The notes under the pieces were generated by a model. The model did no database searches and was not told where the DNA came from. It saw only the letters and a list, made by a program, of their open reading frames with translations. A stretch of 64,000 bases of DNA from positions 5,216,001-5,280,000 of the forward strand of contig CAWIAD010000002.1 of the NCBI GenBank assembly GCA_963833985.1, read 5' to 3'. Shown here one piece after another: positions 293 through 5,474 of the stretch. How positions within the stretch are numbered: position 1 is the stretch's first letter; each line of letters begins with the position of its first letter. The DNA comes from an uncultured Planctomycetaceae bacterium. GTDB taxonomy: Bacteria; Planctomycetota; Planctomycetia; Isosphaerales; Isosphaeraceae. The position numbers were made by a program, and so were the translations under genes.

Positions 293-678
293 CCTCCGCA
301 GTTAAAGAAAGCATTGAGCGCGAGACGCGAGATCCGCGACCAAAAGACAAATAGAGCGAGTACCGGGGCGATTGCGGGGGCCATATCGGCTCAATTAAAC
401 TGCCCACGAACGCCGCATTCGCTCTGGACAGTGGCGGACCTCGGCGGTAGATTTCCCGCACACATCAGCCGAGAGCCAGCTCTGGCTTCCCTTGATCAAT
501 ATTCACCAACCCGGCGCGGGCCGGTGTTTCGCTGGACGGTCTTCGCGAAGAGTCTCGGGAGCGCGGTTCCAGGCGACGGCGAGGTCGCCGGCGGTTCCGG
601 CCTGTCGACCGGGTGCTACGGCCTTGCGAAACCGACCGGCCGCCGTACGTGGATTTCAAAGGCCTGTGGAGGACGCGG

Positions 679-2925
679 ATGCCTGGCACGACGTCGAGTT
701 CACCGGCCTCGGGATGGAGCCAGGCCCTGGGATTGGCCCTGCCGGTCGTGATCATCGGCGCGATCCTCGTGTTCGTGATTCCCATCCCGCCCGTGCTGCT
801 CGACGTCCTGCTCTCGGCCAACCTGACGCTGGCGGTGGTGGTGCTGCTCACCACCCTGGCGATCCGCACGCCGCAGGAATTCAGCGCCTTCCCGACGATT
901 CTCCTGACCACGACCCTGACACGGCTGGTGCTCAACGTGGCGACGACGCGTCTGGTGCTCACTCATGGTGGGGATGACGGGCTAGACGCTGCCGGCGGCG
1001 TGATCCGCTCGTTCGGTGAATTCGTGGCGGGCGACCAGGTGCTCGTGGGCGTGATCCTGTTCTCGATCCTCGTGGTGATCCAGTTCGTGGTGATCACGCG
1101 CGGGGCGACCCGGATCAGCGAGGTGGCGGCGCGGTTCATGCTCGACGGTCTGCCCGGCCGGCAGATGGCCATCGACGCCGACCTGCATGCCGGACTCATC
1201 GACCAGCATGAGGCGCACAAGCGGCGCGACGAGGTTTATCGCCAGGCCGACTTCTTCGGCGCCATGGACGGTGCCGGCAAGTTCGTCCGCGGCGATGCCA
1301 TCGCCGGTGTCGTGATCCTGATGGTGAACATCTCGGGCGGATTGTTCCTGGGGATCGTGAACCACCAGATGAGCCTGGGCGAGGCGGTCAATGTCTTCAC
1401 CAAGCTGACCATTGGGGACGGCCTGGTGAGCCAGGTGCCAGCCTTCCTGATCTCACTGGCGGCGGGCCTGATCGTGACCCGCTCGTCGTCGTCGACCGAC
1501 CTGGGCCATGACGTGGTCAGCCAGCTCTTCAGCAGGCGGGGCGTGATGGGAACGGCCGCGGCCTTCCTCGGTTTGCTCCTGTTCACGCCGCTTCCCAAGC
1601 TGCCGCTCATGGTGCTTGCGGGGGGGCTGGCGACCGCGGCACTCTGGCTGCGGACGAATCCGGACGAGACCGCGACACAGGAACCGCACACACACCCTGC
1701 CCCGGCGCGGCAGCGCGAGCGGCGAACGGGTGACGGAGGCGGAAACGCAGCGCGAAGGGAGAATGCCGGAGCGACGCGGGTGGCTGAGCGTGCCACGTTG
1801 GTCCCCAAGGAAAGCTCCAGCATCGCCGGTCCTAACTCCGAGGGCATGGACGATCTCTTGCACGTCGATCCGCTGGAGCTGGAGATCGGGTTCCGGCTCA
1901 TCGGCCTGGCCGATCCGACGCGTGGAGGAGACCTGCTGGAGCGGCTGCGCACGGTCCGGCAACAGGTGGCTCGCGAGCTCGGTCTGATCGTCCCGCAGGT
2001 GCGGATTCATGATCAGATCAGCCTTGCGCCCAACGATTACCGGGTCAAGATCCGGGGGACGGTCGTCGGTCAGGGAACGGCCTACACCGGCCGGCTACTC
2101 GCGATTCCGCCGGCGGGGATGGTGTCACGGCCCGACGGCCGCGACGGGGTCGACCCGGTCACCGGCCTGCCGGCGGTCTGGATTCACGCGGACGGCCGCG
2201 AAGTCGCCGAGCTGGCGGGCTGCCAGATCCTTGAGGCGTCGGCCGTGGTGGCCGGACATTTCGGTGAGATCGTCCGCAACCACGCCGACGAACTCTTGAC
2301 GCGTGAGCAGATCGAGCGGCTGCTCGACCGCGTGAAAACCTCGGCGCCCACCCTGGCCGCCGAGGTGGTGCCGGCCCTGCTCCGCCCCGGAGAGCTACAG
2401 CGCGTGCTCCAGAACCTGCTCCGCGAGCGCGTGAGCATCCGCGACCTGGAAACCATTCTCGAAGCCCTGGCGGTCCATGCCGGCCGGACCAAGGACATCG
2501 ACGTGCTCACCGAGCACGCGCGTCAGAGCGTGGCCCGGCAGATCACCGAGAGCTACCGTGGCGGTGACGGCCGGCTGCGTGTGGTGACGTTGTCGCGGGC
2601 GCTTGACGCCCGGCTCACGGCAGCGGGCAGCCAGACCGACGTCCGACCGACCGAGGCACTGGGCGATGAGACTGCCCGGAGCATCGTCCGCGCCGTGGCG
2701 TACGCGGTGGGCAACCTGATCGAGGCCGGCCTGGCGCCCTTGATCCTGACATCGACGCCCGCCCGGGCCGTGCTCAAGGACCTGACGCGGGCCGACCTGC
2801 CCCGGCTGGTCGTGCTCAGCCAGCGGGAGATCCCGCGCGACACGCCGGTCGAGGTGCTGGGAACCGTGCTCGAGGAAGAGCCGGAAAGCGTGACCACCTT
2901 CTCCACCACCGAGGCCATGGCCTGA
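679..2925 (+). CDS. flhA: Flagellar export gate protein FlhA
   Basis: FHIPEP motifs RISEVAARFMLDGLPGRQMAIDADL and FFGAMDGAGKFVRGDAIAG; N-terminal TM segments; C-terminal LQNLLRERVSIRDLETILE; GGAGGA before ATG 679. Confidence 0.96.
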   Translation: MPGTTSSSPASGWSQALGLALPVVIIGAILVFVIPIPPVLLDVLLSANLTLAVVVLLTTLAIRTPQEFSAFPTILLTTTLTRLVLNVATTRLVLTHGGDDGLDAAGGVIRSFGEFVAGDQVLVGVILFSILVVIQFVVITRGATRISEVAARFMLDGLPGRQMAIDADLHAGLIDQHEAHKRRDEVYRQADFFGAMDGAGKFVRGDAIAGVVILMVNISGGLFLGIVNHQMSLGEAVNVFTKLTIGDGLVSQVPAFLISLAAGLIVTRSSSSTDLGHDVVSQLFSRRGVMGTAAAFLGLLLFTPLPKLPLMVLAGGLATAALWLRTNPDETATQEPHTHPAPARQRERRTGDGGGNAARRENAGATRVAERATLVPKESSSIAGPNSEGMDDLLHVDPLELEIGFRLIGLADPTRGGDLLERLRTVRQQVARELGLIVPQVRIHDQISLAPNDYRVKIRGTVVGQGTAYTGRLLAIPPAGMVSRPDGRDGVDPVTGLPAVWIHADGREVAELAGCQILEASAVVAGHFGEIVRNHADELLTREQIERLLDRVKTSAPTLAAEVVPALLRPGELQRVLQNLLRERVSIRDLETILEALAVHAGRTKDIDVLTEHARQSVARQITESYRGGDGRLRVVTLSRALDARLTAAGSQTDVRPTEALGDETARSIVRAVAYAVGNLIEAGLAPLILTSTPARAVLKDLTRADLPRLVVLSQREIPRDTPVEVLGTVLEEEPESVTTFSTTEAMA

Positions 2926-2949
2926 GCCATGAAACCAGAGAGTCCGAGC

Positions 2950-4094
2950 ATGGGAGCAAGAACCTACAGGGCCAGAACCATGAAAGAGGCGCTGGCGCGG
3001 GTGCGCCGGGACCTCGGCGGCGACGCCGTCATCCTGGCCTCGCGTGAGGTGCGCAGGCGGAGACTCTTCGGGCTCGGCGCAGGAGCTGATCGAGGTGACT
3101 GCCTCTTCCACCATGCCCGCGGACCTGCCGTCCCTGCTGGGTCCGGAAGTCGCCGGACCGGCGCGACTCGCTCGGTTCCACGCTCTCGGCCGGTGCCCAG
3201 GCGCGGTTTGGAACACAGCTCAGCCAGCTTCATGCCATGGTGGAATCGCTGAGCCGGCAAGGCAGAATTGACCATCTGCTGCCGGACCTTCCCGGCGACC
3301 TGGTTCCGACGTACGCCCGGCTGGTCGAGGCGGATGTCCCGGAAGCGCTGGCCCGCCGGCTGGTCCGGTACGTGGCCGAGGGACTGGAGGATAGCCCGCA
3401 AGGCAACCGGCCGTCCATCGACCGGGCGCTCTGCGAGGCGGTCGAGCAATGCATCGCGATCGCGCCGCCGATCCGCGCGGTCGTGGGAACCCGGCGGATG
3501 GTGGCCCTGGTGGGGCCGACCGGGGTGGGCAAGACGACCACGGTGGCCAAGCTGGCGGCCAACTTCAAGCTCGTCCATGGTTTGCGGGTGGGCCTGGTCA
3601 CCGTGGATACGTACCGGATCGCCGCGGTGGAGCAACTGAAGACCTACGCCGAGATCATCGACCTGCCGCTGGCCGTGGCCAACGATCCAGGCCAGATGCA
3701 GCAGGCGGTGGATGAGCTGGGCGCGGTGGACATGGTCTTCATCGACACCACGGGGAGGAGCCCCCGCGACGAGATCAAGATCCGCGAACTGGCCGACTTC
3801 ATGGCACAGGCGCGGCCGGACGAGGTCCACCTGGTGCTCAGCGCGGGGGCTGCGGAGCGCACGCTCCGCTCGGCCATCGAGCGCTTCGCCGCCGTCAGGG
3901 CCGACCGCCTGATCTTGACCAAGCTTGACGAGGCTGAAGGCCTGGGAGCGATCCTGGGCGTACTGGGCCAGATGGATCGTCCGGTCAGCTACCTGACCAC
4001 GGGCCAGGCCGTGCCGGAAGACATCGAGCCGGCGGACCGCAAGCGGCTGGCTCGACTGATCCTCGGAATGGAGGCGATCGGTTGCGAACCCTGA
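2950..4094 (+). CDS. flhF: Flagellar SRP-type GTPase FlhF (two apparent frameshifts, near 3080 and ~3200)
   Basis: N-terminus RTYRARTMKEALARVRRDLGGDAVIL; GTPase motifs GPTGVGKTTT, DTYRIAAVEQL, DTTGRS, TKLDE, TGQAVPEDI; directly follows flhA. Confidence 0.92.
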
Positions 4095-4148
4095 TTTGTA
4101 CGAGGGGCCCGAAGCGCGGCCGGACAGGCCGGGAGGGGAGGTGGCACG

Positions 4149-4388
4149 ATGTCCGACCAGGCGGACAGTCTGCGGCAGCTCGTCCGGGCCCAGCGCCAGT
4201 GGCGTGAGCTCGCCCTGCAAGAGCAGTCCGCGGCACTCGCGTCCGGACCGTTCGCGAAGTCCGCAATGCCGCAACTGCGGACCGCCGGGCATGACCGGCC
4301 GTCCGGTCCCGGCCACGCGGTCGGCCAGTTCGTGGGGCGGGCGGTGCGCTGGGCCGTGGGCCGCCGGGGCGTTCGGAAATGTTCTTGA
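4149..4388 (+). CDS. 79-aa FlhG/FleN remnant: N-terminal DQAxxLR activator segment only, no MinD ATPase domain
   Basis: MSDQADSLRQLV carries the FlhG DQAxxLR motif; GGAGG-rich RBS upstream; occupies the flhG position between flhF and fliA. Confidence 0.65.
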   Translation: MSDQADSLRQLVRAQRQWRELALQEQSAALASGPFAKSAMPQLRTAGHDRPSGPGHAVGQFVGRAVRWAVGRRGVRKCS

Positions 4389-4697
4389 TGGTTCGTGGCG
4401 TGAAACGGACCGTCACACAGGAGAAAGGAGAATCGGCATGGAAGTCTCGATTTTCGGGTTGGCGTGAGAGTGCTGCTCAAGCCGGTTGGTCGGGTTGTCC
4501 GATATTCAATCAGGATCAAGTTCCTTGAACGGCGGGAGGTCAGAGGGCGGGCAAGCCACGGGCCGGGGCACCGGCGTCGCGGCCACCCAGAAATGGCGAC
4601 GCAGCACTGAGTGTTTCGCAACCACGTCGTGATCGTCGCTGGCCTGCCCTTGACACATGGATGTGGGTCCTTCCGCTCAGGCGACACGGAGGTCAGG

Positions 4698-5474
4698 ATG
4701 TCAACCAAGGTGGATGTGGATGTAGCCGAACTCTGGCGTGAGTTCAAGGAACACCCCACCACGGAATTACGGAACCAACTGGTCGAGCGCTACTTGCCTC
4801 TGGTCAAGTACAACGCCGAACGGATCTGGCAGCGGCTGCCCGAGGGGGTCGATCTGGACGATCTGATCTCCGCAGGGGTGTTTGGGTTGATGGACGCCAT
4901 CGATGCGTTCGACCTCGGCCGCGGCGTCAAGTTCGAGACCTATTGTGTTCCGCGGATTCGCGGCGCCATGCTCGATGAGCTGCGCACTATGGACTGGGTT
5001 CCGCGCCTGGTCCGCTCCAAGGCCACCAAGATGGAGGAGGCGCGCAAGGAGCTGGAAGCGCGCCATGGCCGCCCGCCCACCGATGCCGAGCTCGCCGCGC
5101 AGCTCGGTCTGCCCATGGAAGAATATGAGAAGATGGCGCTCGACTCCAACGCGGTCGGGCTGATCAGCCTGAACAAGAAGTGGTACGAGACCGACAGCTA
5201 CAAGGATGTCCGCGAAATCGACATCCTCGAGGATAAGAAAGGGGAAGACCCCACCCGCCGGCTCCAGCGCAAAGACCTGATGCGCATGGTCACCAAGGGG
5301 TTGAACCGCAATGAGCGGCTCATCATTATTCTTTACTATTATGAAGAGTTGACGATGAAGGAGATCGGCGCCACGCTGGACCTCAGCGAGTCGCGGGTTT
5401 CCCAGATGCACTCCTCGATCATTCAGCGGCTGCAATCTCAGCTCTCGACCCGGCGGCCCGAGTTCGGCACCTGA
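4698..5474 (+). CDS. fliA: FliA/WhiG family RNA polymerase sigma-28 factor
   Basis: RNQLVERYLPLVKY, DDLISAGVFGLMDAIDAFD, RIRGAMLDELRTMDWVPR, LYYYEELTMKEIG..LDLSESRVSQMH; GGAGG before ATG 4698. Confidence 0.96.
   Translation: MSTKVDVDVAELWREFKEHPTTELRNQLVERYLPLVKYNAERIWQRLPEGVDLDDLISAGVFGLMDAIDAFDLGRGVKFETYCVPRIRGAMLDELRTMDWVPRLVRSKATKMEEARKELEARHGRPPTDAELAAQLGLPMEEYEKMALDSNAVGLISLNKKWYETDSYKDVREIDILEDKKGEDPTRRLQRKDLMRMVTKGLNRNERLIIILYYYEELTMKEIGATLDLSESRVSQMHSSIIQRLQSQLSTRRPEFGT

Follow-up and report, generated by a model that had tools for sequence, protein, structure and literature searches.

FlhG and related systems

According to the sections drawn on here of each source cited, FlhG (YlxH, FleN) is a single-domain ATPase, and short forms go unmentioned in parts 1-3 of the 6 that make up that account (PMC12826062). 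Its partner, the GTPase FlhF, binds FliG and thereby captures FliF (PMC11236974). The N-terminal region of YlxH is the part that stimulates FlhF, and in the 3SYN structure a 23-residue YlxH N-terminal peptide is bound near the FlhF catalytic site (PMC7226244). The Gln of this activator is co-catalytic (PMC12826062, PMC12327844). In B. subtilis FlhG, the Q8A variant behaves like the deletion, D65A has no effect and removal of the membrane helix has an effect of about 10%, and the Ala mutant of K36 in Geobacillus FlhG (GtFlhG) is unable to bind ATP (PMC12327844). The same 2025 study inferred that the primary function of FlhG is stimulation of FlhF, with ATP hydrolysis and membrane binding nearly dispensable (PMC12327844). 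Literature searches, which covered open-access main texts, listed no account of a natural FlhG that is truncated or stands alone, nor of the gene cluster of Isosphaeraceae described below.

Here we describe a predicted 79-aa FlhG-derived protein, micro-FlhG, from an uncultured member of the Isosphaeraceae. It resembles FlhG/YlxH/FleN in its slot directly behind flhF, its N-terminal DQAxxLR helix and its C-terminal amphipathic helix motif. Its ancestor is the full-length FlhG of its own family, with which it shares N- and C-terminal words. Unlike FlhG, which has about 300 aa, micro-FlhG lacks the ATPase domain and with it the ATP-dependent dimer and gated membrane binding, as well as the known surfaces for FliM/FliY, FlrA/FleQ and GpsB; moreover, flagellin, rod, hook and FliM genes were not found in its host. 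The YlxH 23-mer bound to the FlhF NG domain in 3SYN is likewise an isolated helix; however, it is a laboratory construct, whereas micro-FlhG is a natural, recurrent and selected gene, often with a membrane helix.

Flagellar export gates persist in some bacteria without flagella, and the nanotube CORE complex is counted with these. Lysobacter enzymogenes OH11 and Buchnera retain FlhA/FlhB/FliP/Q/R without flagellin (PMC7688988), as the Isosphaeraceae cluster does. OH11 also retains hook, rod and FliI genes, and flhF and fliA go unmentioned for it in the part of that source drawn on (PMC7688988); here, by contrast, rod/hook, FliM and FliI were not found, and FlhF, FlhG or micro-FlhG, and FliA are kept.

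A 79-residue reading frame in the flhG slot

The window (the whole stretch of 64,000 nt analysed) belongs to a genome assembly of two contigs and 10.2 Mb, with a completeness of 96%. On its forward strand, flhA (613..2925), flhF (2950..4094; TIGR03499 and SRP54 matches, five GTPase motifs intact) and the FliA/WhiG sigma factor gene fliA (sigma28, 4698..5474; TIGR02479 over cut-off) neighbour an ORF at 4149..4388, the translation of which starts with MSDQADSLRQL; fliF, a short fliG, fliO, fliP, fliQ, fliR and flhB lie just outside the window, 5' of flhA. A Shine-Dalgarno-like GGAGGT (4137..4142, +) stands 6 nt from the ATG, and the stop codon is 309 nt from the fliA ATG at 4698, in agreement with the original prediction of a 79-aa ORF with a strong ribosome-binding site, in the flhG slot and some 310 bp from fliA. 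The ORF is divided, on the forward strand, into a DQAxxLR activator (enhancer) helix (codons 1-20, 4149..4208), a variable linker in place of the ~250-aa MinD-type domain (4209..4319) and an amphipathic helix (residues 58-72, 4320..4364), the homologue of the sequence that targets the C-terminus of FlhG to the membrane.

The micro-protein gave no Pfam or NCBIfam match, no ESM Atlas match at 0.9 or more, and nothing significant when the PDB was searched with its profile. The overlapping frames 4096-4467 and 3044-3271 are without Pfam match, an Rfam scan of 3900-4900 returned one match at chance level (E 0.57), and a sigma70 scan of the locus returned no promoter and a single terminator-like site no better than chance. 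For micro-ORFs of the window's genus and of a second genus, database entries come from species of Aquisphaera and Paludisphaera, each labelled a hypothetical protein (7 of the 10 micro-proteins tried were in the collection). Copies from cultured strains include those of Aquisphaera giovannonii (WP_148595515.1), A. insulae (WP_165232026.1), Paludisphaera borealis (WP_076347967.1), P. mucosa (WP_277858885.1) and Planctomyces sp. SH-PL62 (AMV40328.1). The expectation that annotation would easily miss the gene therefore holds for its label and fails for the ORF itself, which gene callers do predict; because of that label, surveys of flhF/flhG co-occurrence will count these genomes as flhG-less.

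Compared to relatives, the 5' part of flhF (2950-3240) shows two frameshifts, one near 3077 and one at about 3165. In a public DNA run, sampled at a share of 0.05, low-depth contigs carry extra bases at 3080, 3082 and 3160, so that these frameshifts are probably assembly errors; among the pieces listed from this run, none spans the micro-ORF.

Predicted structure and selection

AlphaFold2 predicts two helices in the micro-protein (residues 3-31 and 56-73) with a coil between them, at a mean pLDDT of 64, the first helix alone being confident. The DQADSLR motif occupies residues 3-9, in the predicted helix and in the part that corresponds to positions 1-29 of the family FlhG profile, as expected of an N-terminal enhancer helix, and by analogy Gln4 is likely the co-catalytic Gln. 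An added conserved extension, AQRQW/AQRDW, is common to the window's genus and the second genus, g59, and the predicted helix is lengthened to residue 31.

Selection was analyzed in 11 genomes of the window's genus, all taken by FlhF and none by motif. Codons 3-12 gave a pS of 0.485 and a pN of 0.052, and the two other frames gave ratios of 1.7-1.8; in g59 (6 genomes), the pN/pS of the helix is 0.07. A 17-ORF set was drawn from 9 genomes and 8 metagenome loci, with two frameshifted genomes dropped. On this set, codons 2-20 give a pN/pS of 0.15 (0.11-0.15 within the genus for the activator helix, with other frames >1.6), the linker gives 0.90 and the C-terminal helix 0.70 (0.63-0.70), compared to 0.17 for the FlhF G domain (150 codons, 10 genomes); these figures are descriptive, as kin are not independent. 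The DQAxxLR helix has evolved under purifying selection, as has FlhF; selection on the C-terminal helix is weak, and the linker is neutral. Linker length varies among micro-proteins, and its in-frame variation was dropped as evidence because trinucleotide repeats in the closest relatives slip in threes. The neutral drift and loss of start signals that mark a pseudogene were not found in the ORF, apart from the neutral linker.

The C-terminal helix and the internal deletion

The original prediction had pointed to an amphipathic-looking segment near the C-terminus. This segment, residues 58-71 (VGQFVGRAVRWAVG), has a hydrophobic moment of 0.69 and fits a matrix built from 43 full-length family FlhG ends (shuffle p=0.006), which at the level of a sequence motif makes it a candidate membrane-targeting helix. 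The C-terminal end of the full-length family FlhGs, GFFAALAARWAL, can be aligned with that of GtFlhG (4RZ2). Selection on the DQAxxLR helix and this C-terminal homology back the original prediction.

Among the 29 micro-proteins found in the family, 12 match the C-terminal matrix at shuffle p<0.01; the matrix search left the motif undetected in the other 17, including those of g59, g51, g20, g49 and g31. In G009 and G010, the motif lies one frame off, probably through indel errors, since the FlhF frames of both genomes are short as well. Natural loss of the motif is seen in L044/P0041 and P0034, and partial internal deletions in L047/P0106 and P0130, whereas in P0079, P0089, P0102 and P0107 (62-69 aa) the two ends of FlhG are fused with hardly any change; P numbers denote profile-search hits, judged from the protein sequence alone. 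Because both FlhG ends are kept in micro-proteins, the ATPase domain was deleted from within the gene, and the event was not a truncation. The proposal that the GAP helix was kept and the ATPase deleted thus stands, and the possible membrane anchor stands as a motif in the window's protein, with detection in only 12 of the 29.

A missing and probably ATP-blind ATPase domain

A profile from 49 full-length family FlhGs, run against all six frames of the flhF-fliA gap, matched at its positions 1-29 only. Six-frame search of this genome for a displaced FlhG ATPase found none (the best other profile score, 55 bits, belongs to ParA-like frames), a full-length relative used as query gave one match, with 29% identity, in an 815-aa frame, and an FlhG ATPase was found in none of the 14 genomes of the genus searched. 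A split gene with its ATPase half encoded elsewhere was rejected, as these genome and genus searches give no second piece. The MinD/SIMIBI ATPase domain and its deviant Walker A are missing from the micro-protein; because this defining domain is absent, we class micro-FlhG outside the FlhG ATPase family.

The canonical P-loop Lys was seen in none of the 60 full-length family FlhGs, seven of which are unreadable by the pattern used. Fifty-one carry KGGVGTS, in which Thr replaces the Walker A Lys (e.g. L011:496-1419 and L012:2169-3059), and two carry KGGAG[ST]S. In alignments, this Thr stands where FleN and GtFlhG have their Lys. With the numbering shifted by 8 residues, an offset deduced from the D-to-A substitution that separates 4RZ2 from 4RZ3, the position corresponds to GtFlhG K36. 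Since the K36 equivalent is Thr in this family, its full-length FlhG is probably a pseudo-ATPase, and the domain had probably lost ATP binding before it was deleted. Several other planctomycetes retain the Lys (KGGVGKS); P-loops are degenerate in many other planctomycete FlhGs as well.

Distribution and recurrence

Among 121 family genomes, FlhF was found in 105 (the DNA behind flhF was read in 104 of them) and a full FlhG match in 75. Thirty-three have FlhF without a full FlhG, and 29 of these, from nine genera, carry a 59-98-aa DQAxxLR ORF in the slot, which bears out the conservation expected between flhF and fliA in relatives. As the ORFs were picked across genera by a DQA..L pattern, the invariance of those residues in all 29 is partly circular. 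In the window's genus, all 11 genomes having flhF carry the micro-ORF in the same slot, and its occurrence is therefore beyond chance. The start codon (ATG/GTG) stands two codons ahead of DQAxxLR in 29/29 and a purine-rich site precedes 28/29 by a loose pattern, so that both start codon and ribosome site are retained across nine genera. The remaining four comprise G106, G107 and G109, with a decayed start region, and G017, with nothing in the slot.

The metagenome loci are short in 13 of 16 cases. Among 1.8 billion representatives searched with a profile, 75 matched, 60 of them with at most 110 aa and without Walker A by the rule applied; a few short ones (P0110, P0116, P0123) resemble frameshifted full-length genes. 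Outside the family, 38 planctomycete genomes were sampled, of which 30 have DQA-led proteins of 200-357 aa and 8 have none; micro-FlhG was found in none of the 38. In two flagellated planctomycetes (L193 and L196, from G223 and G169), the flhG slot encodes a DQA-led protein of 200 aa that has no recognisable ATPase motifs, and at L170, L174, L175, L194 and L199, also outside the family, flhF is just 257-384 nt from fliA.

In FlhF+FliA trees, the micro state needs 9 changes, of which the starred branches force 4 (83 rows) or 3 (51 of those 83 rows), and an AU test rejects micro and none as one clade (p=0.003). Moreover, G055 (micro) and G054 (full) belong to the same genus. Loss of the ATPase domain apparently happened several times; the trees, which come from quick searches with two genes of the operon, do not fix the exact origin count, and operon transfer could inflate the number of apparent origins.

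FlhF, the presumed partner

FlhF of all 29 micro-bearing genomes keeps GPTGVGKTT, D[TA]YR, DT[AT]G, TKLDE and GQxVP. In the single clade of G106, G107 and G109 (L096, L097 and L099), where the DQA motif has decayed, the FlhF G2, G3 and G5 motifs are eroded (DARRIGA/DGRRI, DTPG/DSPG and GPA, respectively), and FliA is still 96-97% identical to the consensus; FlhF erosion is tied to the loss of DQA by this one clade of three and the partial case of G017. FlhF occurs without any FlhG remnant in 4/33 family genomes and 8/38 sampled outside the family, with intact motifs in G019 and G023 (outside the family), so the activator is not indispensable. FlhF lies farther from the family consensus in micro (mean 0.81) and none (0.63) genomes than in those with full FlhG (0.89).

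A flagellar cluster without a flagellum

Flagellar genes are poorly represented in Isosphaeraceae, and no motile swarmers are described in the part of the source drawn on (PMC5352709). A stripped cluster, fliF-fliG(short, about 200 aa)-fliO-fliP-fliQ-fliR-flhB-flhA-flhF-flhG-fliA, is present family-wide (window 613-5474, and L119:13744-19689 upstream). FlhA was found in 47/47 good family genomes, and FliA has a mean identity of 95-96% to the family consensus. Flagellin and rod/hook domains were each over cut-off in 1/121 family genomes and in 0/47 good ones; the same flagellin search was positive in 76/114 genomes from the rest of the class. Neither FliM nor the rod N-terminal domain was found in this genome, and no FliI is above cut-off. 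Its sole FliN-domain protein is a 516-aa frame far from the cluster (L162:1495-3042; G000 C2:3115533-3117080), which adjoins response-regulator and kinase-like genes. Because flagellin and rod/hook genes are absent yet FlhA is kept, the switch serves something other than a normal flagellum; the missing genes mean that it cannot pattern ordinary flagella, and by this genetic test control of flagella number or position is not a role of micro-FlhG.

A TCAAG-N16-TCCGATA motif, which we take to be sigma28-like, lies 5' of fliA (4477..4504, +) and is found at 88/89 family loci and 0/4 outside. The motif also stands 65-80 nt 5' of 4/62 genes with an N-terminal LExRxLL (G000 C1:303488, C1:2538890, C2:3084301 and C2:3906269), presumably the planctomycete extracellular signature, vs 25/5601 other genes, 8 of these 25 being copies of one repeated element. 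A FliA regulon of surface proteins is possible on these motif counts. At 4438-4467, a 9-10-codon ORF (MEVSIFGLA) behind AAAGGAG occurs in all 11 genomes of the genus and in two from g59. Since its TTTTCGG core is found in full-FlhG genomes too, where the start signals are missing, the stretch may be a DNA element beside the promoter rather than a peptide. The fliA leader (4655-4693) contains the conserved words ACATGGATGT and ACACGGAGGT, which to us look like CsrA binding sites.

Interpretation

Micro-FlhG is an FlhG minus its MinD-type ATPase domain, and we consider it likely to act on its own as an activator, driving GTP hydrolysis by the FlhF dimer and thereby turning this GTPase off. Micro-flhG would be translated from the flhA-flhF transcript, and its helix would dock at the composite active site of FlhF and insert Gln4, like the B. 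subtilis peptide in 3SYN. The second helix would keep the peptide constitutively membrane-bound without ATP cycling. We propose that the ATPase domain became dispensable because ATP binding had already been lost and the partners known for it, FliM and FliY, are missing or reduced. The task of FlhF would be to place or time the flagellum-less FliF-FliG-FliOPQR-FlhBA export gate.

The foremost rival, which we regard as unlikely, is that the peptide binds FlhF mainly as a stoichiometric tether or brake, or that translation of the ORF matters for coupling to the fliA region. As a tether, the first helix would hold FlhF and the C-terminal helix would tie it to the membrane, replacing a polar landmark. 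Both binding ends are kept in 12/29 micro-proteins, and the AQRQW/AQRDW extension may add binding surface; however, g59 and g51 lost the membrane-helix motif yet conserve the activator helix, and the invariant residue is the known co-catalytic one. Coupling is opposed by the promoter-like motif and ribosome site that fliA has of its own 309 nt downstream.

Slow decay follows as an improbable account, in which flhG erodes stepwise after loss of the flagellum and the short ORF is a stage with little function. A gradient is indeed seen in this flagellin-less family, from full FlhG through partial deletions (L047, P0106, P0130) and micro-proteins with, then without, the membrane helix to decayed DQA motifs (G106, G107, G109) and finally nothing (G017), and the greater divergence of FlhF in micro and none genomes fits it. 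Against this, about half of the silent sites have changed in the genus and the helix is nearly unchanged, at a ratio equal to that of the FlhF G domain, the start signals are kept in nine genera, and the stripped cluster itself is kept, with FlhA in every good genome and FliA about 95% identical.

An assembly or sequencing artefact, with a full flhG collapsed here or its ATPase half located elsewhere, has next to no probability and is already refuted by independent assemblies: the same assembly has indel errors in flhF, 1 kb upstream, and several relatives have a frameshifted full-length flhG, but 11/11 genomes of the genus share the short spacing (607-748 nt), which bears out the argument of the original prediction that a single-base indel cannot account for the loss, 13 metagenome contigs carry the short ORF too, cultured strains have identical-type proteins, and the genus and six-frame searches found no FlhG ATPase.

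With micro-FlhG read as an activator of FlhF, evolution would have repeated the dissection of FlhG, losing the P-loop Lys, then the domain and sometimes the membrane helix, while the Gln helix stayed selected. A natural peptide of 60-80 aa in cultured strains makes the idea of FlhF stimulation directly testable. The family-wide FlhF/FliA/export-gate cluster has been overlooked in flagellum-less bacteria. We tentatively suggest, as a possibility and not as the expected outcome, that Isosphaeraceae repurposed a flagellar positioning switch for secretion without a flagellum. FlhF would place the export gate, e.g. at the budding pole, and would be reset by an FlhG that works without ATP and is recurrently reduced to a two-helix GAP peptide tethered to the membrane, and sigma28 would drive LExRxLL surface proteins. 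If true, nature would have proved that FlhG has its core in the activator helix, and FlhF would have a non-motility role across the family.
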